Shown here: in pieces, positions 5,960-64,000 of the stretch
How the letters are laid out: every line of letters begins with the position of its first letter
Numbering within the stretch: position 1 is the stretch's first letter
From: Moniliella sp. 'wahieum'
Taxonomy: Eukaryota
Length of the DNA: 64,000 bases
Direction of reading: 5' to 3'
NCBI GenBank assembly: GCA_003971905.1
Contig: RSEE01000018.1
Span: 496,001-560,000 of the forward strand
Notes under the pieces: generated by a model
What the model was told of the DNA's origin: nothing
Databases searched by the model: none
The model's input: only the letters and a program-made list of their open reading frames with translations
Position numbers and translations under genes: made by a program

Positions 5960-6591
5960 GTCAACGGCATTTCTGATCGCGTCCCCTTTCCTCCTCCTTC
6001 ACGCCATTTCAAGGGCTCGCCAACCCCCTCTGCCCTACGAACCTCACTGTAAGAGGATGACGGAATGGACACCCTATAACCCACCCCAAATATACGTAAA
6101 AATGTATTTGATCGAACCGGAAAGAATCCCCCTTGGAACACTTGAATAGGAACCAATTGTCGCGGCCCCTATAACGGGGCAATAGAGGGCGATGTGGAGT
6201 AGATTCAAAAACCAGAAATCGGGGAAATGAACGCTTGCGAATTTGGCAGATATACCCCTGGCGCAAATGCATGAGGTTAAGCTAAACATTCTATTATAGA
6301 GAGAGAAAGGGACAATGGTGTGCATACTACCTTCGTCATATGTGCCGACTTTAAAGCTAAGTGTGCCGGCAACTTGGGTTCATCTCAGACAATTAAACCC
6401 CGCAGTCGTGAAAGAAGTGGAACAAAGGCGAAATGGTGGCCTGCGTCATTTTCTGTAGCGCTGCATATATTGTAGGTCTGCGATATAAAAAGGGAGATTG
6501 CCATCGCGTGTACGAGAGAGAAGAGAACCAAGAAAGCGATGATACGTAAGTGAGGTCTGGCAGACAACGATGAAATAGTGCAACACATGGA

Positions 6592-8709
6592 TTACATCTT
6601 GGACAAGTCGCGGCCAAGATGCCACGTTTAACATAGTCCACCGTCAAAAGCAAGCGGGTACGCCAATCAACTTGCTCCGAAAGGTAAAATGAGCGCCACA
6701 CGTACATGGCCACCAACCCTCCAGCAAATTGGCCCACCCTTTCAGGCAGGAATGGAATGTCAAACGCTGCTGCATTGCCAATGTAGGCCAAGCTGCCCAA
6801 GTTGCGGAACTTGAACGGAGGATAGTTGTTATCCTCCCACTTGGCAGGCTTGGCCACCGGGTTGACGGAATTCAAGTCGTCAGATACACCGGAATTCCTG
6901 GTCGCAAGCTCCTGATCCCGAGCTGTGGCTAGGTCGTTGAGCATACCCCCTAAATACGCCCCTGCTGTGATGCGGTCTGGGCGGTGGCAGGTAGGCGGTA
7001 ATGTTGTTCTGCAGACCGAGAGGAGGGAGGCAAGCTCATTGATAGACAGCTTGTTGTCCTGGTCTTCGTCGTATTTTTGGAACAGACGGTCCAGTTTCTG
7101 GAAATGGCGTGTGGCCAGCGGGTAATGCACACTGATCTCTGTTACAACCCGGACGAATTCTGAGTAGGACAAGAGGCCGTTGCAGTTGCCGTCAAAACGG
7201 TCCACCCACTCGTAGAGATGGTCAATCAACCGATTGTCAATCGTTGCCGCATCCCCAAGTGCGTACATCGTGCCCGGAATGCTCCCTTTCACGCGGAGAT
7301 ACGAATCCACCATAAGTGCCTTGAGATGGAACTGATTAGGCAGGACCTGCGTCAAACGACGGGTGAATGGGTTCATGGCAATCCCTGTCGACCAAAGAGT
7401 AAGCCCGAGGGGATCTCAAACTCCTCCAGGGTATTGTCATCCTTGCGCACCGTGTAGACAACCTTGTCGGGAGCGATCAGCTTGACCCGCGTTAGTGATT
7501 AGTTGTACGCCCGTCGCGAGAGAACTTGCTTCGGCATATTGCGAGATCTTTTCGGCGTACGTGTTGAGAATGTGCTCTCGCGATTGGATGACAGACACCT
7601 TGACTTGGGCCGGGATGATCTTGGGATAGAGATGCTGGACGTCTTCGTTGATCATGTCGAAAATTTCGGCGGCGGTCTCGACTCCAGTCGGCCCGCGCCA
7701 CACACAACAAAGCTCAGCTGATCCGCTCTTCCGGAGTCGTAGTCGGCAGTGAAGCAATTTCCAGATTGTTAACGATCTTGGCCCGAATCGCACGGACTTG
7801 GGGGATGGTTTGAGTTGGTACGAGTGTTCCAACCCAGGAACGCCATGTGTTAGTCACACTGCCACAGGCAATGACCAGCTTGTCGTATGGCACGTACACA
7901 TGCTTGGTTAGATTGTCCCCCCCATTCTCGGCATCCTGATCCCCATCAATGACCGCCACCTCGAGTAGGTGCGACTCTTTTTTCTCTCACTGGGTGCCTC
8001 GAGCTGTGAAGGATCACCACATCGACGGCTTTGCCTTGTAAATAGTGCCCATCAACCCGTTTCAGGATCCGGCGCAACCCCTCCACCAGCGAGCGGGGCT
8101 CCACCGTGCCTACCGCGGCAGAGGGAAGGAGGGGAGTGAAGAGAAAGTAATTGGTCGGGGACACAACAGTTACATGGTACTTGTCCGGATCCAGCGCTTG
8201 AATTAGCGCAACCGCACCCCAGCCTCCGCCAACAATGACCAGATGCTCCTTCCGAGCCAGTTGGGCCGATTGCTCATCATCCGCATCGTCCACTTGGGTG
8301 GACAAGATGGGCAAGCGTTTCGGACCGCCCACCTCTGGCTTCAAAGCCAATTCGGGGAGGGTCACATTGCCGACATGGCGCTCAGTATAGGTAGTGAAAT
8401 CGTAAGCCATCAAGAGCACCACAGTTGCTGTCAGGCCAAAGACGATGCTCCCGTTCCCAGAAGAGTATATTTGAGAACTGGGTGCCGAGCCCAAAAGCCC
8501 AAGCGTCGAGGTAAAGCTGGTGGCGGTGAAGGTCCTTGCTCTTTGACCAGAAGAGGCTGCGAGGTGGAAAAGGCGCGCCAGGACGCAGTCGAAAGAGGCT
8601 GAACCGCCGAAAGTGTAACGATAGGCGTAGCAGCTCTCATGGGACCGCCGTTCCACATGGCTCTTCGAAGGGGCAGCATTACGCTCCGTGAGAATTGGGG
8701 GGGAGGCAT
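6592..8709 (-). CDS. Mitochondrial external type II NAD(P)H:ubiquinone oxidoreductase with EF-hands (64 kDa, Neurospora NDE1-like)
   Basis: Targeting-like N-terminus and TM segment, then HLVIVGGGWGAV, SPTNYFLFTPLLPSAAVGTVE, PYDKLVIACGS, GPTGVETAAE, YALGDAAT, EF-hand loops DGNCNGLLSYSE and DEDQDNKLSINE, GSLAYIG, WRSFYLSEQV and C-terminal GRDLSKM*. Multiple frameshifts. Confidence 0.92.
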
Positions 8710-10195
8710 AGCGATCTGAAGAGAGATGGTGGAAGTAGTCATAGATGTGTAAGCCGCGTGGTATAGGGATGCAAGTGTGTCTCTCCCCAACACGGGGGTC
8801 TTTGTTGGACGCGTTGGCGTGTTCGGTGTGCAACGGCGCGAGTGAGAGATCGGGAGGATGATGTCAATGATCGATGAGGCATCTTCGGCATCTCTCGAGT
8901 GTCGGGAAATGCTATCCCAGACGTCTGTCTCACAAGACCAAACTTTTTCTGGTTGTTGTCCCTCGCACATCACCTGCATCACACCGGCATTGGCCCCCTA
9001 TCTACCTTTCGATGGAGCAGACATGTTGACATTTACTGATTTAAGTCTCGTTTAACGCTTAACAGGCCCGAGGATTAACATATCTCGATCAAGCTGATCA
9101 AGCAATAATCTGATTGGCATCGGTGAGTACACGATTCGCATATTCGGACACGAAGGGAGGTGGCGCGCCGCGTCATACTGGTTTGGGTTATTTTTTAGCA
9201 GCAGGTCTCTCCGATTTAAAAGAGGAAAAGAACCACGCCGTGCTGCCCCATCGACCTCATCCACACACCTGCCCTTTTCACCTTCGTATCCATCTTCTCG
9301 TCCACCGATACACGTTTCCACACGGGTGTCCACAATTGCTATGTTTACTATACAGTCACTAATAGTTAATCGCGGGAGGCCTCTGCATGAGTATTTGTCA
9401 CACGTGCAGACAGCCTACTACGGATGCAGAGGAAGAAGGCAAGATGGCAGATGCCATCTCAAAAGACGGGGAGCGCTGGCAGGAACCAGCAGGATTTTAG
9501 AGACAGTATGACCCATTTCCCTCTGTACTAAGCCTACCTGATCTTCTTTGTCGGAATATAACTATGGTTTGTTTGTCTCAATACGCCAAATCCGCGCCTT
9601 TCGTATATCGCGGGGACCGCGGGTGGTACCGGAGATTCAATTGCTGGCTCAGAACCTGCGCTGCGGGATGATTGTGAACTGCGACTGAAGGGTTGCCAGA
9701 CGCCTTCAGAGAGGATTCAGATTCAGTGCTCAGTTCGTCGTCAGCATCCATGTGGCAGAGGCGACACATCATTGATCAGATGGATAACACGAACAGTACT
9801 GTCACTTATCACAACCTCGTTCTGCGCCCGCCCAGAACATTCATCACGCATTATGTTTGTCTGGTTGAGAGCCATCAGGGCGCAACCTGAGACCGGCATA
9901 GCAACCAGCGCAAGTTGGGGTTACCGGAATATAACACTCACTACCTCAGGCCTGAGCCTCAGTACTCAGACTCACTGCTCATTCAGGCTCAGGGCGCTCT
10001 GGCAGGGCGCTCTGGCCCCATTCCATCCCAACAAGGAGAATGCAAAACGGTTTTGGTCGGATGTCACAGGACGAGCGGCATCACTGGGTAGGGAGACAAT
10101 GACAAGGAATCATGGTAAGGGCAAAGGAGGGGCGGGGAGGTACCAAAGGGCGGCGCCGCAGTCGTGTGATAACAGGAACACGTCATTCGAGCCGA

Positions 10196-12651
10196 TCAAA
10201 CATTGGGCTTGATGAAGTGCAACGTCCAGGTCGCCAGTAGCTGATGGCTTCTTGCTTCCTCTGGGGTCAGAGGCCAGCCATACGTGAGCGGGGCAATCCA
10301 CCAGAACCCAGCAATGATAAGCCCCACCAGTCCCACAGGATGGAGAGGGTGGTGGATTCTACCCAATTGAACAAGGCGCGGCGGGTGTGGGTAAGCGGAT
10401 CGTCGCGCAAGCCGGGTCCGGGGCGCGAGATGGGGAAGTTATCGTCTCGGTCAGGACAAAGTTGACAACTGTACCGCCATAAACAAGCGAGGATGTTGGC
10501 TGGAAGGTAGTGGTGAAGAAATTGCCGGTTCATCAGGTAAAGGGGAGGTAGTGCCAAAGCCAGGCCACAAAAATAAATCCGCCGAAGAGCAGTCGGCCAC
10601 GGATGGCCGAGGCAATAGGGTAGATTCCTCGTTGACGAGCAAGCGCATCGGCCAACATAATGCCGACAAACATGCTGAGAGAAAGGGTACCAATGTACCA
10701 AGAGACAGGATTGCCAATCATATAGATCTGTTCTTGCTTGTCCCCATTTGTCCAGAACGAGATGCCAGAGATGAGGAACGGCCAGTTGAGTGGGCCAGAG
10801 GCATAAGGGTGGGACGAGGTGAGAAGGTTGTTCTGGTGCAGCATTGTCAACTGTAGCTCAGCCCACTTCTTGAAGAAGTTCATCTTGGTCACCTTCTTGG
10901 GCGGCAGGGGCTTGATCCGTTCCTCATAATCGTCCGCCAACTCATCCGGGTACAATTCATCGACCACCCACAACGCCGATTTGTCGAACACATTCTTGTT
11001 ACCGTTCACTTCTTGATGCTTGAATCCCCACTCGGGCAGAAGCTCATCGTCATGTGTCCAAAGCGAAACGCGGGTCGGGACATGAACCAAGTGCACGCTT
11101 GACGCTTTGGACTTCCACGCGACCTCAGTGTCCTTTCCCGCACCATCAATGTGCAGCTCAAAGAGCGTGTCATTGTAGCGACTGGTGTCGTTCCAAGGCC
11201 AGGTGGTGAATTCCTCGTTGGTTGCGATCAGTGGGCGGCCACATCGTGGCTCATGAGAACCGATCGTGTTGACATGCAAGAGGCGAACAATATCCTTATT
11301 GCGTACTACGGCCTCTTCGCCGCTGTACCGTCAGGAAGTGACTTGACCGGGACGACCTCCCAAAGATTGTTCGTGTCGTTGAATGGATAGGCAGTCACTT
11401 GCTGGCCTTGCGAACTGATCCTTCCGTCATCGTACCGAAGCGGGTAGGTGTCCCAATGCGAGTGAAGGAAGGCCTCAGTAGCTTTGTCCTTCAGCACGAT
11501 CCGGTCGCCATAGTGAATCTCACGTGCCTCCGCCAACAGTGGGTTCCCCTCGAGCGTTTCTTGAAACTCAGACGACATGAACGCGTCACCAGTTCCGCTC
11601 CGGGTCAGGATGGCAAAGTGGACCCAGAACCAAAAGATGTAAACGACAGCCGGCCAGAGAATCAGACCCACGGCACGGGCAGCAAAGTGTTTAGCGAAGT
11701 CATTCTGTGCAAAAAGTGGCCAATGAGCAAGTGGGTCCAAATAAAAGCGTGCGTCGAAAGCAGTTACGCACCAGACTCTTGCCTCGCCGGTAATCGAGCA
11801 AATTCCATAGGTCCCACACGACAGCCGTTCCAACACTGAATATGGTTAATAGTCCCACCATCTTGCACGACATGGTTAGCGCCAGGTTTGCGCCGTCATA
11901 AACATCCAGAACCACCAGCGCGCCGAGAACTCATTGTAGCGCTCCTTGTAGAACTTGATGTACGCGTAGATTGAAGTGGTCATAAAGAGCACAAGGGCAG
12001 CGTCGAGTAGGATGAGACGGTCTTGAACAATGTGTCCGTTCTCAAAGAGCACGAGGCAGGCAGTAAAGGTGGCAATGGCCTGGCCGTAGCCCGATTCGCG
12101 CATGATGGCGTACGCAAGCGGAACGAGCAGCGAACCGAGGAAGGCAGGGCCGGCCCGCATACGCACGTACGGCACATTGTTCTCGACGTACTTGTCACCA
12201 ATGTCGACAAACTCAAACTTGCCGTCAAACCCAGCAAGCCAGGCAACAGCAGCGTTGATGAGCTTGGCCAAGGGGGGTGACGTCAAAAAAGTACTCGCGG
12301 CGGAGATAGTAGGCGGCAAATTTGCCAAAGTGGACCTCGTCAAACACCACCTCGGCGGGGTGTTGGATGTAGTAGAAGCGCAAGGCAAAGGCGCCAGCCA
12401 AAAGGAGAAGCATAACAGGCACATCGGTGCGATTGCGGTAGATGGCGGGGTTGACGGGCGCGTAGTGCTTGAGGCGAGATGCGGGGACCGCCGGGGCAAT
12501 CGCGGCGACGCCGCTATCGGCAGGGGCGGGAAGGGCTGTCGGGGCTGGGGCAAGCGGCGGAAGCCGAAGCTGGTGCAGACGCAGGCGGTGGTGGCGAGGC
12601 AGCGTCGGTGGGCTCAGGCGCGTCCGCGCCCGAAGCCACAGAGGAGCTCAT
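10196..12651 (-). CDS. PMT4: Dolichyl-phosphate-mannose:protein O-mannosyltransferase, PMT4 subfamily
   Basis: VVFDEVHFGKFAAYYLRREYFFDV, RLILLDA, WDLWNLLDYRRG, SGTGDAFMSSEFQETL, MIR domain FLHSHWDTYPLRYDDGRISSQGQQVT, SSHPYAS, RQFLHHYLPA and C-terminal APLTYG..WTLHFIKPNV*. Intron 11705-11771 (GTGCGT..CAG on the minus strand). Confidence 0.92.
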
Positions 12652-22007: not shown

Positions 22008-23671
22008 ATGGGTACCACCGCCTCAAGCCTGTGACGGCAGAGACCGAGAAGGCAGCCTTCACTTCCTCGGCCCCTGCTCCCGAAGCCGCTGCTATGCACC
22101 ACGCTGCCGACCGGTTGGCGCGCATCCAGGCCGAGGCGACGGCTCGGCAAACCTCATCTCAGCAGCCCTTCAGCCAACATTACCCCCAAGAATGTCAAGG
22201 ACTGGCAGGAGGATGCCTTTGCTGTACGTCTTGCCTTGCTTTGTTTCTTTTCGTGCGCCCAGGACACACGACGAGCGCTCCTGCTAACCTCCCTCTCGCC
22301 TTGTCTAGGAGCCGGCCGCACGTCTGGCGGCACTGACGCTGCACAATGCCAACATCCCCGACTCGCTCCACTCGCGTAAGACAGAAATTGAGCACAACCA
22401 GATCTACAACCTCCAAGTGCCCATCCTTCCTAAGAGCGTGACCAACCAAAGAGTTCTGGGCGGTGTTGGCTGTTTGCGACCACAAACCTGATCCGCCTCG
22501 AAGTGATTCGGCAGTTGGACATTAAGGACGCCGACTTTGAGCTGAGCCAGTCCTACCTCCACTTCTGGGACAAGCTTGAGAAGGCCAACTACTGGTTGGA
22601 AAATGCGATTGAGTTGGCGGACCGGTCGTGGGATGACCGGGAGCTGAACTACCTCAGCAAGAACTTTAGCTCGGATGGTGGCCATTCAACATGGCAACCA
22701 ACCTGGCGGTCAAGTATGGCATCTGCCCCCAGAGCGTTTACCCCGAATCCTCCTCAACAGCTCCAACACTGCCAAGATCACCTGGCTGACGACAGTCAAG
22801 TTGCGCGAGTTTGCGCAGGAGCTGCGCGATCTCAAGAAGGTGACTGAGGAGCGGCTGAGTAGCAGTGTCGCTCAGGCGTGATGACGCCCACACAGATGAG
22901 CGGTGCTTGCGACAGTGCGAACCCACAAGGAGAAGCAGATGAAGGAGGTGTATCGCATGATGGCCATTGCGTATGGCGCCCCGCCAGGCCCGCACGATGA
23001 GTTTACGTTTGAGTGGTACGACAGCAAGAACCGGTACCAGTCGCTGACTACGACGCCATATGAGTTCCAAGTCAAGTACACTGGTACTTTTAAACCGCCA
23101 AGGGCTGTGTCTCGCTTGTCCACGACCCACGCTACCCCGAGGACACGGTGATTACTGTGGACCGACTTGGAAATGTGTGGGATGGCCAGCCGGTCACCTA
23201 CATCAACACGAGCGTCGAAGAAATGGAGCGGTTGGTGGTCAAGTCCATCAAGGCGGGCCACACTGTCTTTTTCGGGTGCGATGTGGGCCAGTTTAGCCAC
23301 ACGCGAGTGGGATTATGGACACGGAGCTGTTTGACTATGAGGCGGCATTTGGTCAAGCTGGGCTTGTCCAAGAAGGAGCGGCTGGAGATGGGCGAGTCGC
23401 AAATGACGCATGCCATGCTGATTGACAAGGTGCATGTCGACCCGAAAACCGACACCCCGATCCGGTACGCGTGCAGACTCGTGGGGCGCACCGGGTGGGT
23501 AAGGATACAGGCTACATGTCCATGTCGCGCAAGTGGTTTGCCGAATTTACGTACCAGTGTGTCTTCCGCAAAGAGCTCCTCTCGCCCAAGCACCAAAAGC
23601 TGGCCGAGCGTGGCATTGACGAGCATGCCATCCACTTGCCCCCCTACGACCCAATGGGCGCGTTGGCCTAA
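22008..23671 (+). CDS. LAP3: Bleomycin hydrolase / cysteine aminopeptidase (peptidase C1B)
   Basis: VTNQKS..CWLFATTNLIR (catalytic Cys region, frameshifted), FELSQSYLHFWDKLEKANYWLE, SDGG, VFFGCDVGQ, ESQMTHAM (catalytic His), frameshifted NSWG region and the family-typical C-terminus YDPMGALA*. Probable intron near 22224-22308. Confidence 0.92.
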
Positions 23672-46433: not shown

Positions 46434-47093
46434 ATGCCTCTTGTTGGTTCCAAGGCCCCTCTCTTCACCAAGGCTGCTGTCATTGACGGCCAGATCTCGG
46501 AGGTCTCTCTCGAGAAGAACCTCAAGGCCGGCAAGTGGACCGTGCTCTCGGTATGTCTACTTCTATCCCGCCTCGGCCCTTGTGGGTATGCTTGCTGACC
46601 CGCCATGGTTCCTCTTTCCCAGTTCTACCCCCTGGCCTACACCTTCGTGTGCCCCACCGAGATTGTGAGCTACGGTGCGGAGGGCAAGGCGTTCAAGGAC
46701 CTGAACGCTGAGCTCCTGTACGCCTCGACCGACTCGGAGTTCACCCAGCTCGCCTGGGACCAGGCCAAGACCTCGGACGGTGGCCTGGGTGGCGTGTCGA
46801 AGAACGTGGCTCTGGTGGCTGACACGAACCACAGCCTGTCGCGGGACTACGACGTGCTTCTCCCTGACCAGGGCGTTGCGCTGCGTGGCACCTTTATCAT
46901 TGACCCGCAAGGCATCATCCAGCATGCCACCATCAACAACGCCCCTGTTGGCCGCAACGTGCAGGAGACCCTCCGTCTGCTCGAGGCGTTCCAGTTCACT
47001 GCCGAGCACGGTGAGGTCTGCCCTGCCGGTTGGCAGAAGGGCGCGGACACCATCGACACCAAGAACGCCACGGCCTACTTCTCCAAGCACTAA
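46434..47093 (+). CDS. TSA1: Typical 2-Cys peroxiredoxin (Prx1/Tsa1)
   Basis: Exon 46434-46550, intron 46551-46622 (GTATGT..GCTGAC..CAG), exon 46623-47093. Motifs FYPLAYTFVCPTE (peroxidatic Cys), GGLG, LRGTFIIDP, VGRN, GEVCPAGW (resolving Cys) and YF. The frame is intact. Confidence 0.96.
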
Positions 47094-53357: not shown

Positions 53358-53972
53358 CGGTCTGATGTCTGTCTGTTTTTCCCCCTTGGCGCCCAGAGAG
53401 GCTCAGCGCTACAAGCTAAAACCCATGGTAGCTGCATGTTATACCTTGCCGTTCAGATTCCCTGCACCTATTTTTGCTCTTTTGTTTTGCTTTGGTTGGC
53501 TTGGGCTTGGGAGGTAGTAGGTTTGGTGCGTGCCAGTGTGACAGACGGTCGACCAGTGGAAGTGTGGTGCCAACCCTAGCTGCCTGGGGACCGGCTGCTG
53601 ACCAGTGAGTGACCCCATGGATGATGTCGATGGCGACGAACCGGCCCATTGCCCGGCCCGAGCCGTCCCGAAGACTTGCGCCGTGCGTGTCTGTCGACTG
53701 GGCGGGGGCAGCGGCGGTGGGGCGCCGGGCGCAGGGCCAGTGTGCGATTAATAATTGCTTAGCGGGGGCGGGGGCACCTAACGATTCGCTGACGCAGACC
53801 AGAGCAGAAGCAGAAGCAGCGGCACGCCCCGCCCCCGCCCCTGGTCGGCTGGGTTGCCTCGAGGTGGGTTGGGTAAGCCAACGGATGGGATTCAGCTTCT
53901 TGGGTGGGCTCGGCGGCGCAGCTGGCACGTTGGTCGCCTCTCGACCCACCCACCTCCTGCTCTGTGTGCGCC

Positions 53973-54671
53973 ATGCTCGTCAAGGCTCTCTCCGCTTGAC
54001 CTCGCTTGCCACCCAGCCCCACCTCCGCCTTCTGGCCGGCGGGTCGTCCCGCTCGTTTGCTACGTGTGCGTACTCCTCTTCCTCGCGCCCTGTGCTGCAT
54101 CGCGTGTGCGTGGAGGACCGATGCTCCCTGGCCGTGGCAGTGGTACTGACTTGTGTGTGTTTTGCGGTGCTGCAGCGGCGTACCGCCAAGTCCAGGCCAG
54201 CCAAGTCCAGCCGGCGTCCTACATCAAGGGCACGGTGAACGAGCCGACTGAGTACCCGCCTTCGAACGCCGCGCACGGCTCGTACGAGTGGACGTTTGAG
54301 CGGGTGGTGGCCCTGTCGCTCGTGCCGCTGATTTCGGCATCGACAGTGAAGCATGGCGCGTCGGGTGCGCTGGATGGTGCACTAGCTTTGGGGCTGATCA
54401 TCACTCGCACTACGGTGTGAGCCAGGTGCTGTTTGACTACTTCCCCAAGCGCAAGACGCCCAAGCTGGCCGCCTTGTTGACCTGGACCTGGCGTGCCACC
54501 TCGGCCGCCGCGCTGTACGGCCTGTATGGTACGTTGTCCCTCTCTTGGTGTGCGGTCGCCGACCCAATCTGACATGTGTTTGTGTTTGCGTTTGCGTTTG
54601 CGTTGCTGCTCAGAACTCAACACCAACGACATTGGCCTGACGAGACGATTGCGCGTGCGTGGACGGCGTAA
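53973..54671 (+). CDS. SDH4: Succinate dehydrogenase membrane anchor, small cytochrome b subunit (CybS)
   Basis: YIKGTVNEPTEYPP..HGSYEWTFERVVALSLVPL, HSHYG..DYFPKRK, YGLY|ELNTNDIGLT..WTA*. Introns near 54064-54175 and 54529-54613. Confidence 0.88.
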
Positions 54672-55601: not shown

Positions 55602-56990
55602 ATGTCCCATCTCCCTGCTACCGCCGCCTCTGGCGTCCAGGAGGGCCGCGCCAGCGTGGTCCTCGGTGCGCAATGGGGTGACGAGGGCAAAGGTGAGTTC
55701 CTTCCCCTCCTTTTTCCTCGTCGCCTCTGCTGACTGTCGCTTGGTTCTGCAGGCAAGCTTTGTGACATCCTTGCGGGTGCCATGGACGTGTGCGCTCGCT
55801 GTGCTGGCGGCAACAATGCCGGTCACACCATTGTGGCTCATGTGGGCCCCGACAAGGTCAAGACCAAGTTTGACTTTCACCTGCTGCCCTCGGGCCTGGT
55901 CAACCCTCGGTGCGCCGGCTTTATTGGTTCGGGGGTCGTAGTGCATGTGCCTTCGTTTTTCGCTGAGCTCGACACGCTGGAAAAGAAGGGCTTGGAGGTG
56001 AGTGGCCGTCTGTTTGTTTCGGACCGCGCCCATCTGGTGTTTGACTTTCATCAAGTCGTCGATGGCATGAAGGAAGTCGAGCTGGGAGGCAGCAGCATTG
56101 GCACCACCAAGAAGGGCATTGGGCCAGCGTACGGTTCCAAGGCTTCCCTCTCGGGCCTGCGTGTGCATCACCTGTACGACCAAGAGTTGTTTGCAACCAA
56201 GTTCCGTAACCTGGTTGAAGGCCGGTTAAACGCTACGGTCACTTTGAGTACGACACGGAGGGAGAGATTGCGCGCTACCGTGCCTTTGCTGAGCGTCTGC
56301 GCCCGTTTGTTGTCGACGGCGTCACTTTCATCCACTGCGTTGGCACAGAACCGCCGTGTGTTGGTCGAGGGTGCCAACGCGTTGATGCTTGACATTGACT
56401 ACGGCACGTACCCCTACGTTACTTCGTCTTCCACAGCGATCGGTGGCGTGTGCACTGGCTTGGGCATCCCCCCCAAACTGGTGGGCAAGACGATTGGTGT
56501 GATGAAGGCCTACACTACGCGCGTCGGTTCCGGTCCCTTCCCCACCGAGCAGCTCAACGAGGTTGGAGTTCACTTGCAAGAGGTGGGTGCCGAGTGGGGC
56601 GTGACGACCGGCCGTCGTCGCCGGTGCGGATGGCTGGATTTGGTGGTGATGAAGTACTCGCACATGATCAATGGCTACGACAGCCTCAACCTCACCAAGC
56701 TCGACATTCTCGACGACTTGGAGGAAATCAAGGTGGGCGTGGCGTATTACCACGATGGCGTCGAACTCGCCTCGTTCCCTGCCGACTTGGAGTTGCTGGC
56801 GCAGGTGCAAGTCAAGTACGAGACGCTGCCCGGGTGGAAATCGAACATTTCCAAGATCACCCAGTACGACGAGCTGCCGACCAACTGCAAGAAGTACATT
56901 GAGTTCTGCGAGAAGTTCCTCGGCGTGCCCATCGAGTACATTGGCGTTGGCCCTGGCCGCGAGAGCATGATCCACCGGCAGCAGGCGTAA
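55602..56990 (+). CDS. ADE12: Adenylosuccinate synthetase
   Basis: [14 protein letters not shown] across intron 55693-55752, [76 protein letters not shown] and IGVGPGRE. Confidence 0.97.
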
Positions 56991-58959: not shown

Positions 58960-61900
58960 ATGGTCGCCGTCCGCGTCGACGCCCTGCCCGTGCAGCCCCA
59001 GCAACCCGACCTCAACGACCCCCTTGTCGCCCCCCCGCGGGGCGACCACCCCGAGGTGACCACCTCGGCCAACCTGGATGCCAATGGCTTCCACCATGTC
59101 GTCCGCTCGCAAGCTTCCTACGGTGGCGATGCGCTCCCTGCCGCCCAAGGCCTTTACGACCCTGAGAACGAAAAGGACAGCTGCGGGGTGGGCTTTATCT
59201 GCCACATCAAGGGCAAGCCCAGCCACAAGATTGTGTCCGACGCCAAGTTTGTCCTGTGCAACATGACCCACCGCGGCGCCACTGGTGCCGACGCGCGCGA
59301 TGGTGACGGCGCTGGGTGCATGACTGGTATCCCCGACTCGTTTTTCCGCCGCGAGCTCGAGATGGACTTTGGCATCACCCTTCCCGCCGAAGGCCAATAC
59401 GCGGTGGGCAACGTCTTTTTCACCCCCAAGGATGACCGCTGCGTGCGGACCACCAAAAGATCTTTGAGTCGGTCGCTGACTCGGTAGGGCTGCGTGTCCT
59501 GTGCTGGCGGAACGTCAGTGTCGACAACTCCATCCTTGGTCCCGCCGCGCTCAGCAAGGAGCCCAAGATCCTCCAGCCCTTTGTTGTGGCCAAGGAGCAC
59601 TATGGCGCCGGATCGGCGCCTGCGCAGACAGAGGCTCCGTTTGACGAGAAGAACTTTAATCGCCAATTGTACGTGCTGCGCAAGTCGGCCACTCACAAGA
59701 TTGGTTTGGCCAACTGGTTCTACATCTGCTCTCTCTCCCCGAGCAACATTGTCTATAAGGGTCAGCTTGCACCCCGGCAGGTGTACGACTACTATTATGA
59801 TCTGCTCAACGCCCGTTACGAGTCGCACTTTGCCTTGGTCCATTCCCGTTTCTCTACCAACACTTTCCCTTCTTGGGACCGTGCCCAGCCGATGCGGTGG
59901 GCAGCCCACAATGGTACGCATGCCTCCCCTCTTCGCCTTGGTCTACTTCCTTGTTACTGACTCCCTGATGCATAGGCGAAATCAACACGATCCGCGGTAA
60001 CAAAAACTGGATGCGTGCCCGCGAGGGCATGTTGCGTTCGGAAGTGTTTGGCAACGACCTTGACCGCCTCTACCCGATTATCGAACCTGGTGGATCCGAC
60101 TCGGCTGGGTTTGACAATGTACTGGAGCTTCTGGTCGTCAATGGTGTCTTGACGCTGCCCCAAGCGATCATGCTTCTTATTCCTGAGGCTTGGCAAGGCA
60201 AACAAGACCATATGGAGCCCGAAAAGGTTGCCTTTTACCGCTGGGCGGCTTGCATGACGGAGCCTTGGGACGGGCCCGCCCTGTTTGCCTTCTCGGATGG
60301 TCGCTTCTGTGGTGCCAACTTGGACCGCAATGGCTTGCGGCCGTGCCGGTATGTCATCACTGACGACGACATTATGATTTGTGCGTCGGAGGTGGGCACC
60401 ATCCACATTGATCCGGCGACGGTGTTGGCCAAAGGCCGGCTGCAACCCGGGCGTATGCTCTTGGTGGATACCAAGGAGGGCCGCCTGGTCGACGACAAGG
60501 AGCTCAAGATGACTACTGCCCAGTCGGCCGACTTTGCTGCCTGGCTCGAAGCGCAGCTACTGCATCTCCCTGACATTTGTCGCCGCACCCGGGCCAACGC
60601 GCCGATCACGGCCGAGCTCGACAGCACCACCCTTAGTACCGATCCGCGGATGAAGGCGTTTGGGTACACCAACGAGCAGATTAATCTGTTAATGCTCCCC
60701 TGGGCACGTCTGGTAAAGAGGCGCTGGCTCGATGGGTAACGATGCGCCCCTGGCGTGCATTGCCGATGCGCCTCGGCAGGTCTACGAGTACTTCCGCCAG
60801 CTGTTTGCTCAGGTTACCAACCCGCCCATTGACCCATCGCGAAGCGGTCGTCATGTCGCTGGAAACGTATGTCGGTCCCGAGGGCAATCTGCTGGAGATG
60901 AACCCCAAGCAGGCTCACCGCCTCTTGCTCCCATCGCCCATGCTAAAGATTGAGCAGATGAATGCCATCAAGCGCATCCACGAGGCTCGACGACTGGAAG
61001 ACAAAGGTAATTGACATTACATTCCCCAAGGCGATGGCATTGCGGGCTACGAACGCACGATCGACCGCATTTGCGCAGAGGCTAGCGCGGCGATTTCGGA
61101 AGGCTACACCATTGTCGTTTGTCTGACCGTGCGGTGAGCGAGGACCGCGTCGCCTTGAGCTCACTGGTTGCCGTCGGTGGTGTGCATCATCACCTGATCC
61201 GCAACAAGGCTCGTACCAAGGTGGCTTTGATGATTGAGACGGCCGAGGCTCGGGAGGTGCATCACTTCTGTGCCTTGACGGGCTATGGTGCCGACGCCAT
61301 TTGCCCCTGGCTGGCGATTGAAGTGATGGCCAAGGTGCACCGCGAGGGCTTGATCAAAGAGGACATTACGCTCGAGACGGCTGTCGAGAACTGGCTGCAC
61401 GGCGTGGATGGCGGGATTCTCAAAGTGATGTCCAAGATGGGCATTTCGACGCTTGCATCCTACAAGGGTGCCCAAATCTTTGAGGCACTGGGCGTGGACA
61501 ACTCGGTGATCGATCGCTGCTTTGCCGGTACGGCCAGCCGCATCAAGGGTGTCACGTTTGAGCTGTTGGCCATGGATGCATTTGAATTCCACAACCGCGG
61601 TTGGCCTTCTCAGGAAACGGTCCTGCCCCCCGTTTTGGCCGAGAGTGGCGAGTACCACTGGCGAGATGGTGGTGAGGCTCACGTCAACGATCCCGTGTCG
61701 ATTGCCAATCTGCAGGATGCGGCGCGGGAAAAGAATCAGTTTGCCTGGGACCAGTACAGCAAGCAGGCCACCCAGTCCGTCAAGGCCACCGCCTGCGTGG
61801 CTTGCTCGACTTTGACTTTACCAAGGCGCGCCCCATCCCCGTGGACCAGGTCGAGCCGTGGACGAGATTGTGCAGCGATTCTGCACTGGCGCCATGTCGT

Positions 61901-64000
61901 ACGGTTCCATCTCGATGGAGCCCACTCGGCTTTGGCGATTGCCATGAACCGCTGGGTGGCAAGTCCAACACGGGTGAAGGCGGCGAAGACGCCGAGCGTT
62001 CCATTCCACTTCCCAATGGGGACTCGCTCCGTTCGAAGATCAAGCAGGTTGCTTCGGCCGGTTTGGTGTCACGTCCAACTACCTTGCCGACAGCGACGAG
62101 CTGCAGATCAAGATGGCGCAGGGGGCCAAGCCTGGTGAGGGCGGTGAGTTGCCAGGCCACAAGGTGTCGCCATCGATTGCGCGTACGCGTCACTCGACCG
62201 CGGGTGTCGGTCTCATTTCCCCCCCTCCTCATCATGACATTTACTCGATTGAGGACTTGAAGCAGCTGATCTACGACCTCAAGTGCGCCAACCCTCGCGC
62301 GCGTGAGCGTCAAGCTTGTGTCCGAAGTGGGTGTTGGCATTGTGGCGGCGGGTGTGGCCAAGGCCAAGGCGGACCATGTGCTGGTCTCGGGTCACGACGG
62401 TGGTACGGGTGCGTCGCGCTGGACTGGCATCAAGTACGCCGGACTTCCCTGGGAGTTGGGTCTGGCCGAGACGCACCAGACATTGGTGCTCAACGACCTG
62501 CGTGGCCGCGTGACGGTGCAGACTGACGGTCAACTTCGCACTGGTCGCGACTTGGCCATCGCTACGCTCCTAGGTGCCGAAGAGTATGGCTTTGCCACCA
62601 CGCCCCTCATTGTGATGGGCTGCATCATGATGCGCAAGTGCTTGGGTGTGGACACGCTGGTGCGCACGCTGGGCGGTGCGCGACGAAACGCATTGGCGAT
62701 ATTGCCCTTGGCGACACGCTGTTGGACGACAGCAACAACCCTGTGCTTGTCATGTCGGTGGGCGATGTGGAAACGGGGGAGATGTACCAGGTTGCATACA
62801 CTCTTGATGGCGAGGAAAGCGCTTTGAGTGCACGCCGGACCACATTCTTTCTTTGGCAGCCGTGGGCGTGGAGCCCACGATGGAGAACAAGACGGTCGAG
62901 TTTTACAAGCGCTGCGTGTCGGGCAAAAAGCTGGACCAGGCGGCCGAGCACGCGCCTCGTGTATGATGCACGACCTTGTAACTCTGGCGATGTCCAAGAC
63001 TTGGACCGCGAAGATGAGGTGGACGAGGAGATTGGGTATGTTATTTGGATCTTGTCCCGTGCAGCGAAGGCGTACTGACTCGCATATACCTTTAGCTCTG
63101 AGATGTTACCAAGGAGTTGCTCAGCGGGCACCGTCACCGTGCCCACGCGACGGGCGCATCGCCATTCGACCCTCGCAGTTGCGTCCATGGCAAGGAAACC
63201 GTCCACGTTTCCTTTGACCTTGGCGTCGCCATGCCCGAGCTCGAGAGCGACCACGGTCGGACGCTTCGTCGACGGCCCCTGGCACCCCAGCCATCGAGCC
63301 TGCCGCCGACACGGTGGCCCTTGGCCCGGTGGATGAACTGGTGTTGAGTGAAACTGCCAAGGCACCTGCGCCCGTTCGTGCCACCGAGGAGCCCTTCCTC
63401 CGTGTTGGGGCTCAACTGCAAGGCCGCCTTGCCCTTCTCAAGGAGAAGATCCAGGAGGCAAGTGAGTGCTCCTGCGGTGGCCTGCACAAGGTCTCGCTTG
63501 AGCTGGCGTCCGAAGAGCAGGCACAACTGGTTAACAGCCTCCTCTTCTCTGAGCACCACCACCTTGTTGAGCCCAGCCTCGTTTTGGATGGCGACCGGTT
63601 CGAGGCGACAGCTGAGGACCTTCTCAACCACTCCCACCCTAAGCTCCGTCTTTTCCGCCCTGCCAACCAGGCCGAGTTGGGGCTGGCGCAGGACGATGCG
63701 TACTTTGTTGGTGCCTGGTTGGGCGATGGAGATGCCCACCGGGCCACGCTGGCCGCTTCGGATGCGGAAATGCTGGTGTGGTTGCACAAGTATGTGGAAC
63801 AGCTGAACGCGACGCGTCCCCAGGGCGCGACCGAGCTCAAGGTAGTCAGCCGGAAGGTGACTGCGGTTGGGGACCTGGTCGGATCCAATGCGTTTGCTCG
63901 GGCCGACATGTTTAAGCACACGGTTCTTGCCCAAGACTGGAACCCGCTGGAGGCGAAGCTTACCGACCTAGGCCTTCTCGGCACCAAGGAGCGCCGCATC
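58960..64000 (+). CDS. GLT1: NADH-dependent glutamate synthase (GOGAT); intein-containing, incomplete at the window edge
   Basis: EKDS-CGVGF (Ntn amidotransferase Cys), [29 protein letters not shown] (intron 59914-59975), [98 protein letters not shown] and GCIMMRK. The sequence then switches to intein. Confidence 0.97.
62639..64000 (+). mobile_element. GLT1 intein with LAGLIDADG homing endonuclease (N-terminal part; C-terminus outside the window)
   Basis: The expected CHLNTCPVG after GCIMMRK is replaced by [13 protein letters not shown] (block A, Cys1 at 62639), [20 protein letters not shown], block [12 protein letters not shown] (62823-62855), LAGLIDADG-type [11 protein letters not shown] (63698-63730) and [20 protein letters not shown] at the edge. 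Confidence 0.93.
63036..63095 (+). other. Spliceosomal intron inside the intein coding sequence
   Basis: 5' GTATGT at 63036, branch TACTGAC at 63073-63079 and 3' ATACCTTTAG ending at 63095. It is 60 nt, AT-richer than its flanks and contains an in-frame TGA (63076-63078). Its size and signals match host introns (ADE12 60 nt; GLT1 62 nt with the same TACTGAC). Confidence 0.75.

Follow-up and report, generated by a model that had tools for sequence, protein, structure and literature searches.

A divergent GLT1 intein with a candidate spliceosomal intron in Moniliella sp. 'wahieum', a probable basidiomycete

The stretch of DNA considered here (the window) comprises 64,000 nucleotides (nt) of Moniliella sp. 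'wahieum', contig RSEE01000018.1, and carries at its right end the 5′ part of GLT1, the gene of NADH glutamate synthase, which is interrupted by an intein that runs into the right edge. The features of this locus are listed below, with lengths of proteins given in amino acids (aa) and with P0001, P0131 and similar numbers denoting proteins found in the database searches.

58960..62638, plus strand: N-extein of GLT1 (NADH glutamate synthase), with a predicted start ATG at 58960 and ~11 single-base frame changes as assembled
59914..59975, plus strand: spliceosomal intron of GLT1, 62 nt, GTACGC...TACTGAC...TAG
62639..64000, plus strand: intein, about its first three quarters, ending at the window edge; full length estimated at ~575 aa from P0001
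62639..62680, plus strand: block A with Cys1, in the extein frame, aligned with CLASDTLVRT... of ascomycete GLT1 inteins
62678..62682, plus strand: first frame change, where the window has two extra letters relative to a 97%-identical metagenome contig
62683..62820, plus strand: piece of the N-terminal splicing domain, in a second frame, with a BLASTP match to P0131
62823..62963, plus strand: block B piece, in a third frame, with frame changes near 62820 and 62957-62965
62965..63035, plus strand: acidic linker piece, placed by the intein alignment, which stops at the 5′ splice site of the candidate intron
63036..63095, plus strand: candidate spliceosomal intron within the intein, 60 nt, phase 2, with an in-frame TGA
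63096..63254, plus strand: linker piece ending ELESDH, 78% identical to P0001, which has SSEDVTQELL there
63257..64000, plus strand: linker and first half of the LAGLIDADG endonuclease domain, with the frame open to the window edge
63698..63733, plus strand: first LAGLIDADG motif (block C), with the Asp aligned with PI-SceI D218 present

It was initially annotated that GLT1 homology stops at MMRK and gives way from 62639 to an intein with block A, block B and a LAGLIDADG motif, and all of these were found in place. The N-extein matches the Pfam profile Glu_synthase (E=2.8e-47), and its frame (in phase with 62561) ends in CIMMRK and continues as block A, with the Cys1 nucleophile, the first residue of the intein, directly after MMRK at 62639 and in the GLT1 frame. 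Block B, FECTPDH, is in phase with 62562, its T-x-x-H lies at 62832-62843, and the TPDH is aligned with the CTPDH of 11/11 ascomycete-type inteins. The first LAGLIDADG motif, together with its Asp, is contained in an open reading frame (ORF) at 63218-64000 (261 codons), which had correctly been described as open to the edge. What the initial annotation overlooked is that the motifs it named do not share one open frame as assembled, but are spread over three (phases of 62561, 62560 and 62562), with five frame changes within 62678-63257 (near 62678, 62820, 62960, 63100 and 63255) and none from 63257 to the edge, and that the 60 nt at 63036-63095 hold an in-frame TGA. The separate pieces nevertheless find intein relatives one after another: 62683-62820 matches residues 17-56 of P0131 (BLASTP E=6e-12, 48% identity), 62823-62963 matches residues 68-98 of the same protein (E=7e-8), 63102-63254 matches residues 12-61 of P0001 (78% identity, E=4e-27), and 63218-64000 is 71% identical to P0001 over 95% of the 261-aa query (E=1.6e-104). 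Since each piece matches intein relatives collinearly, the pieces are not a product of chance, and on the strength of its sequence the intein in GLT1 at 62639-64000 is real, far beyond chance expectation.

P0001 is a 1393-aa ORF and the only match that the 261-aa query gave when 7999 candidates of 458-2000 aa were scored. It continues past the point at which the window stops, with ~140 more intein residues that end in ...VAHN before a Cys; they include the second LAGLIDADG motif LLAGLLDTDGSY and then ...FQLADGLVAHN, which is followed by CHLNTCPVGIATQDP and the rest of the GLT1 C-extein. Block G HN, Cys+1, CHLNTCPVG and 946 aa of GLT1 C-extein are thus all contained in one ORF, in which the Pfam domains Glu_synthase, GXGXG, Fer4_20 and Pyr_redox_2 were found. 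When the intein part of P0001 was compared with longer proteins, nine matches were obtained among 2937 scored candidates, all of them glutamate synthases of 2614-2770 aa with an insert of 515-665 aa that is 36-39% identical; the three named ones are all from ascomycetes, namely Fusarium lateritium (P0002), Elaphomyces granulatus (P0003) and Scheffersomyces xylosifermentans (P0005). Compared by eye, P0009 starts like the displayed portion of GLTi_Pichia_guilliermondii in the Green et al. (2018) supplement. The C junction, N before CHLNTCPVG, is common to 10/10 proteins (P0001 and the nine full-length ones), and the N junction of the full-length proteins is MMRK before C in 8/9 and FMRK before C in 1/9. 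On its N side the window is identical to P0003-P0010 (CIMMRK before C), while the C side is read from P0001. The earlier proposal of a full-size, LAGLIDADG-type intein at the canonical GLT1 site is in this way borne out, with the N junction present in the window and the C junction in P0001 and the nine proteins. Because the insertion site is the same, the window element is allelic and homologous to the known GLT1 inteins, and judged by site and by whole-length homology it is assigned to the allele GLT-a.

The low quality of the assembly, in which no independent contig lies across the junction, might raise the suspicion of a chimera or of contamination that joined a foreign intein fragment to GLT1. 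However, the join is in frame and falls exactly at the canonical codon boundary, the composition does not differ between its two sides, and P0001 has intein and C-extein in one ORF, so that an artefact of this kind is regarded as extremely improbable.

The membership of a wider family was approached with a profile (A1) built from nine intein-only proteins and three window pieces, which matched PI-SceI (1dfa_A) with E=6.6e-15 over profile positions 312-569, the endonuclease and C-terminal splicing region. In P0005 the Pfam profile Hom_end scores above its cut-off (27.4 bits), and Hint_2 (E=0.018) and Hom_end_hint (E=0.024) both stay below theirs. A HMMER search with the 261-aa piece against 1.84 billion representatives gave 44 matches with E<=1e-3, 17 of them with E<=1e-10, and none with E<=1e-30, the best being 40% identical; a scan of JGI metagenomes with the same piece returned 596 pattern-matching stretches, 0 of which were confirmed as relatives. 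Apart from P0001, the window lineage is without a close relative in the collections searched.

Four of the HMMER-search matches (P0137, P0143, P0147 and P0166) have GLASDTLVRT or GHASGTLVRT after a short Met leader, with Gly in place of Cys1, and two of them (P0137 and P0143) finish with the last residues of the intein, ...VVYN and ...IVCN, and lack an extein. To go by their sequences, these four look like free-standing genes derived from a GLT1 intein, and such copies, which can be compared with HO or WHO elements, may have been domesticated or may be in decay.

The frame changes are not confined to the intein. The N-extein at 59128-62638 needs 11 of them beyond its one 62-nt intron, which gives 11 in ~3.5 kb of extein and 5 in ~1.3 kb of intein. 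When P0003, the Elaphomyces GLT1, was compared with the window by ungapped tblastn, 21 collinear high-scoring segment pairs (HSPs) were obtained, of which 0 have an internal stop; 16 of them span 59128-62683 with 51-92% identity, and the conserved extein core reaches 88-92%. A comparison with metagenome contigs was made from one DNA run (X1, 5% of sampled words), where most contigs matched glutamate synthase genes of other organisms. One contig (record 8, 62639-62791, 5 mismatches) omits 2 letters at 62678 and so restores the frame, and other contigs add single bases at the extein frameshift sites 61951 and 62058. The X1 contigs cover none of 62916-64000 except for a trace at 63100-63283. It was also seen that records 7 and 8 (each of 151 nt and with ~97% identity to the window) meet precisely where the intein starts; this may be a coincidence, or a branch of the assembly graph caused by other GLT1 alleles in the sample.

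Unrelated genes of the window are broken in the same manner. The protein O-mannosyltransferase (PMT) gene at 10200-12650 (minus strand) has at least 3 frame changes, as the PMT Pfam profile passes between ORFs of different frames, which overlap or abut, at ~12270-12295, 11894 and 10540-10578, and the gene of a C1-family (bleomycin hydrolase-like) peptidase at 22434-23668 (plus strand) has at least 3 as well, with the Peptidase_C1_2 profile running on across frames at 22685, ~23100 and ~23470-23495. A gene at 6396-8863 (minus strand) for a type II NADH dehydrogenase (Pyr_redox_2 and NDH2_C) that has an EF-hand embedded in it likewise extends over different frames, and its predicted product looks like a calcium-binding external NADH dehydrogenase. 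Because unrelated window genes are frameshifted likewise, the frame changes of intein and extein are most likely for the greater part indel errors of the assembly rather than decay.

Several observations weigh against the account of a complete and intact PI-SceI-like intein. The second LAGLIDADG motif, blocks F/G and the resumed GLT1 of the window copy are predicted from the relative P0001, since the C-terminal quarter falls beyond the window edge. The residue aligned with PI-SceI K301 is Arg in the window copy as well as in P0001. Over the N-terminal Hint part, profile A1 matches solved inteins only weakly (gp41-1, E=0.013); in P0001 Hom_end reaches 18.6 bits against a curated cut-off of 21.1, with LAGLIDADG_3 likewise below its cut-off; and Pfam applied to the single window pieces found no Hint and no LAGLIDADG domain, only Glu_synthase, the pieces being short and frame-broken. 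All five frame changes of the intein lie within its first 620 nt. The two metagenome contigs in favour of an unbroken frame measure only 151 nt, at depth 2, and the extein/intein junction is bridged by neither. Finally, the adenylosuccinate synthetase (ADSS) ORF at 55734-56987 (plus strand) runs over 1254 nt without a frameshift, so the indel noise is uneven and some of the indels in GLT1 and the intein could be real. What can be claimed for the window copy is limited by the quality of the assembly and by truncation at the edge.

The last of these points could be taken further, to a decaying pseudogene in which the frameshifts are real mutations and both the intein and GLT1 are non-functional. 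The 16 frame changes across GLT1 and intein, next to an intact ADSS, would agree with it, and GLT1 is described as dispensable in some yeasts in the accessible part of PMC5056185. However, the PMT and C1 peptidase genes have no relation to GLT1 and are frameshifted too, and real decay should bring substitutions and nonsense codons, whereas 0/21 HSPs carry a stop, the extein core is still 88-92% identical to ascomycete GLT1, and the 97%-identical contig is free of the first frameshift. Decay is therefore considered unlikely, and assembly noise is kept as the explanation of most of the frame changes.

Within the intein, the 60 nt at 63036-63095 have the appearance of a spliceosomal intron. They read GTATGT...GTACTGAC (branch TACTGAC), then 16 nt, then TAG. 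Two introns nearby, one of ADSS at 55693-55752 (60 nt) and that of GLT1 (62 nt), share this architecture, with CTGAC 14-18 nt before YAG; the GLT1 intron is marked in the tblastn comparison with P0003 by HSPs that end at 59915 and start at 59975, leaving a 60-nt gap with no residues missing. The pattern GTATGT-N25-55-CTGAC-N8-25-YAG has 2 matches in the 64 kb, both strands included, versus 0.40 expected by chance. The other match lies at 46551-46622 (plus strand), where the ORF of a 1-Cys peroxiredoxin begins (46599-47090, with the AhpC-TSA profile matched from position 32), and on account of this position it is probably a true intron. In the alignment of the pieced intein, the flanks ...DEEIG and (S)EDVTKELL... 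abut without a gap against P0001 and 11 ascomycete-type inteins, and the 20 codons of 63036-63095 have no counterpart in any of these relatives. The length is a multiple of 3, so that removal keeps the flanks collinear with the relatives. The ORF of P0001 begins with a Met that precedes SSEDVTQELL by ten codons, which means that the frame of P0001 is broken at this point too.

The alternative is that the intein is real but 63036-63095 is no intron, being instead a lineage-specific linker insertion or degenerate sequence whose stop came from an assembly error. The linker around it is poorly conserved and of variable length among inteins, and at least 2 matches to the pattern occur in 9/100 shuffles of the window. 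Furthermore, relative to P0001 the window lacks one base near 63100-63103, some 6 nt past the 3′ splice site proposed here, and this correction is still required once the 60 nt are taken out. Alternative splice sites that would avoid the downstream frameshift were sought by hand, and none with GT/AG ends and the P0001 frame was found. An insertion or degenerate stretch would nevertheless have to match GTATGT, TACTGAC and TAG exactly, with the length and spacing of the two nearby introns, to be divisible by 3 with collinear flanks, and to coincide with the interruption of P0001 within 10 codons upstream of SSEDV, in a window where the other match to the pattern also looks like a true intron. 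Such a stretch is given a modest chance, and it is quite likely, as far as these signals can tell, that the intein ORF contains a spliceosomal intron at 63036-63095.

The host had been named a probable basidiomycete at the outset, and the ADSS gene agrees with this. Among the best 120 matches of its product every organism-named one is from a basidiomycete, with the exception of Smittium culicis at 55% identity; the best is Tilletiaria anomala (74%), followed by Ustilaginales (73%), Jaminaea and Exobasidium (72%) and Agaricomycetes (<=72%). The ADSS ORF is 83% identical to its two closest sequences, and in a maximum-likelihood tree of ADSS (26 rows) the window groups with those two at 100/100 support, and its place among the basidiomycete subphyla is a polytomy. 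An ORF for CybS, the small subunit of succinate dehydrogenase, lies at 53782-54417 (plus strand), upstream of ADSS; it is 51% identical (E=1e-22) to part of a fused CybS and ADSS model of Malassezia vespertilionis (P0078, 611 aa), from which it follows that the CybS-ADSS gene order is shared, the fusion itself being probably a gene-model error. GLT1 has one intron in 3.7 kb, and paucity of introns is typical of Ustilaginomycotina. The host is thus supported, by sequence comparison, as a GC-rich, intron-poor basidiomycete. A place in Ustilaginomycotina is suggested by the best named matches, the single GLT1 intron and the gene order shared with Malassezia, and it stays a lean because the ADSS tree puts the window in a polytomy among the subphyla.

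The intein resembles its host gene in composition. The GC content at third codon positions (GC3) is 0.72 for the intein, 0.74 for the extein and 0.75 for ADSS, and relative synonymous codon usage is correlated between intein and extein with r=0.84, compared with r=0.89 between extein and ADSS. In an unrooted tree of 13 inteins, only four rows of which carry names or name-equivalents, the window and P0001 form a clade ~2.8 substitutions per site away from all 11 ascomycete-type inteins. The long branch and the host-like composition are evidence against a recent transfer from a sampled ascomycete. Such a transfer might have been expected from the patchy distribution of GLT1 inteins and from the fact that all hosts listed earlier are ascomycetes. 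However, the best identity to an ascomycete-type intein is only 36-40%, the window lineage stands on its separate branch, codon usage and GC3 match the host, a second copy, 71% identical, exists in another organism (P0001), and the intein has probably gained an intron of the host type. Recent arrival from an ascomycete is therefore judged very unlikely. The suggestion of horizontal transfer or ancient persistence, made when the intein was first noticed, is weakened in its recent variant: the data lean against recent transfer and would fit ancient vertical persistence and old transfer alike. A further step, that this is a deep basidiomycete branch of GLT1 inteins, resident long enough to gain an intron which it appears to share with its 71%-identical relative, can be put forward tentatively, as a proposal with somewhat less than an even chance.

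Taken together, we consider it likely that the window element is a full-size, PI-SceI-like LAGLIDADG intein inserted between CIMMRK and CHLNTCPVG, in the flavin mononucleotide (FMN)-domain motif of nuclear GLT1, in a basidiomycete host, with an intron of its own and with reading frames disturbed by assembly noise, and that it has been long resident in this lineage rather than having arrived recently. By analogy with its family, the following course of expression may be proposed. The pre-mRNA would first lose the 60-nt spliceosomal intron within the intein ORF. The precursor protein would then splice itself, beginning with an N-S acyl shift at Cys1 and a transesterification by Cys+1 of the C-extein, after which the terminal Asn would cyclise, helped by the block B His and the penultimate His. 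The products would be mature glutamate synthase and a free endonuclease, and the latter could promote homing by cleaving GLT1 alleles that lack the intein. If the intron is real, mature glutamate synthase and the homing endonuclease would both require two kinds of splicing, first of the RNA and then of the protein, and the intron would travel with the intein during homing.

The reported distribution of GLT1 inteins is restricted to Ascomycota. The ascomycete hosts named in the initial annotation are correct, since the available text of PMC1635734 names the same four, D. hansenii, P. guilliermondii, P. anserina and P. nodorum; Candida carpophila is added in the accessible part of PMC5056185, where the GLT1 inteins are 553-607 aa long. 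In the portions at hand of Green et al. (2018; PMC5784728), Table 1 gives five GLT inteins, from Pezizomycotina and Saccharomycotina only, and all five supplementary GLT sequences are labelled ASCO. For the basidiomycete Salmacisia, PRP8 and two RPB2 inteins are described and none in GLT1 in the part of the Salmacisia genome preprint that was available. No report of a basidiomycete GLT1 intein was found in the literature searched, Ustilaginomycotina taxon names included, and none of an intron within an intein-coding sequence, with partial coverage in both cases and, for the intron, with brittle phrase matching. The window element is accordingly described, on the sequence comparisons above, as a real, divergent GLT1 intein in a basidiomycete, of a known kind that has so far been reported only from ascomycetes. 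It would add Basidiomycota to the hosts of GLT1 inteins, and a very divergent second lineage (36-40% identity) would open the age of the allele, and vertical persistence versus horizontal movement, to study. The intron, if real, is a marker of long nuclear residence and gives a reason for this copy to be overlooked by gene callers and by censuses of inteins made at the protein level, and the endonuclease, if active, would be a new enzyme of the LAGLIDADG type whose long target lies in a conserved gene.

Among the systems already known, the inteins of basidiomycetes, in PRP8 (Cryptococcus, Tilletia, Salmacisia), RPB2 and VMA1 (Pucciniomycotina), share with the window intein the phylum and the nuclear location and differ from it in host gene and site. 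The Podospora anserina CHS2 intein is reported, in the accessible parts of PMC5056185 and PMC5784728, to be the closest non-allelic relative of GLT1 inteins. PI-SceI, the VMA1 intein of S. cerevisiae (PDB 1DFA, 1VDE, 1LWS), is alike in the acidic residues of GDG and D-x-DG and in the terminal ...VVHN; unlike the GLT1 family, it resides in another host gene and site, and the similarity of its N-terminal Hint and DNA-recognition regions is insignificant (3.9-bit domain). The ascomycete GLT-a inteins, those of Debaryomyces hansenii, Meyerozyma (Pichia) guilliermondii, Podospora anserina, Phaeosphaeria nodorum and Fusarium fujikuroi together with those of P0002, P0003 and P0005, stand nearest. From these the window intein differs by its 36-40% identity, its long separate branch, its basidiomycete host, its likely spliceosomal intron and a shorter and different linker from block B to the endonuclease, whereas the insertion site, the order of blocks, the full size and the LAGLIDADG endonuclease are the same, and the alignment is collinear down to the linker motifs C-x-C-G-G and EEQAQL.

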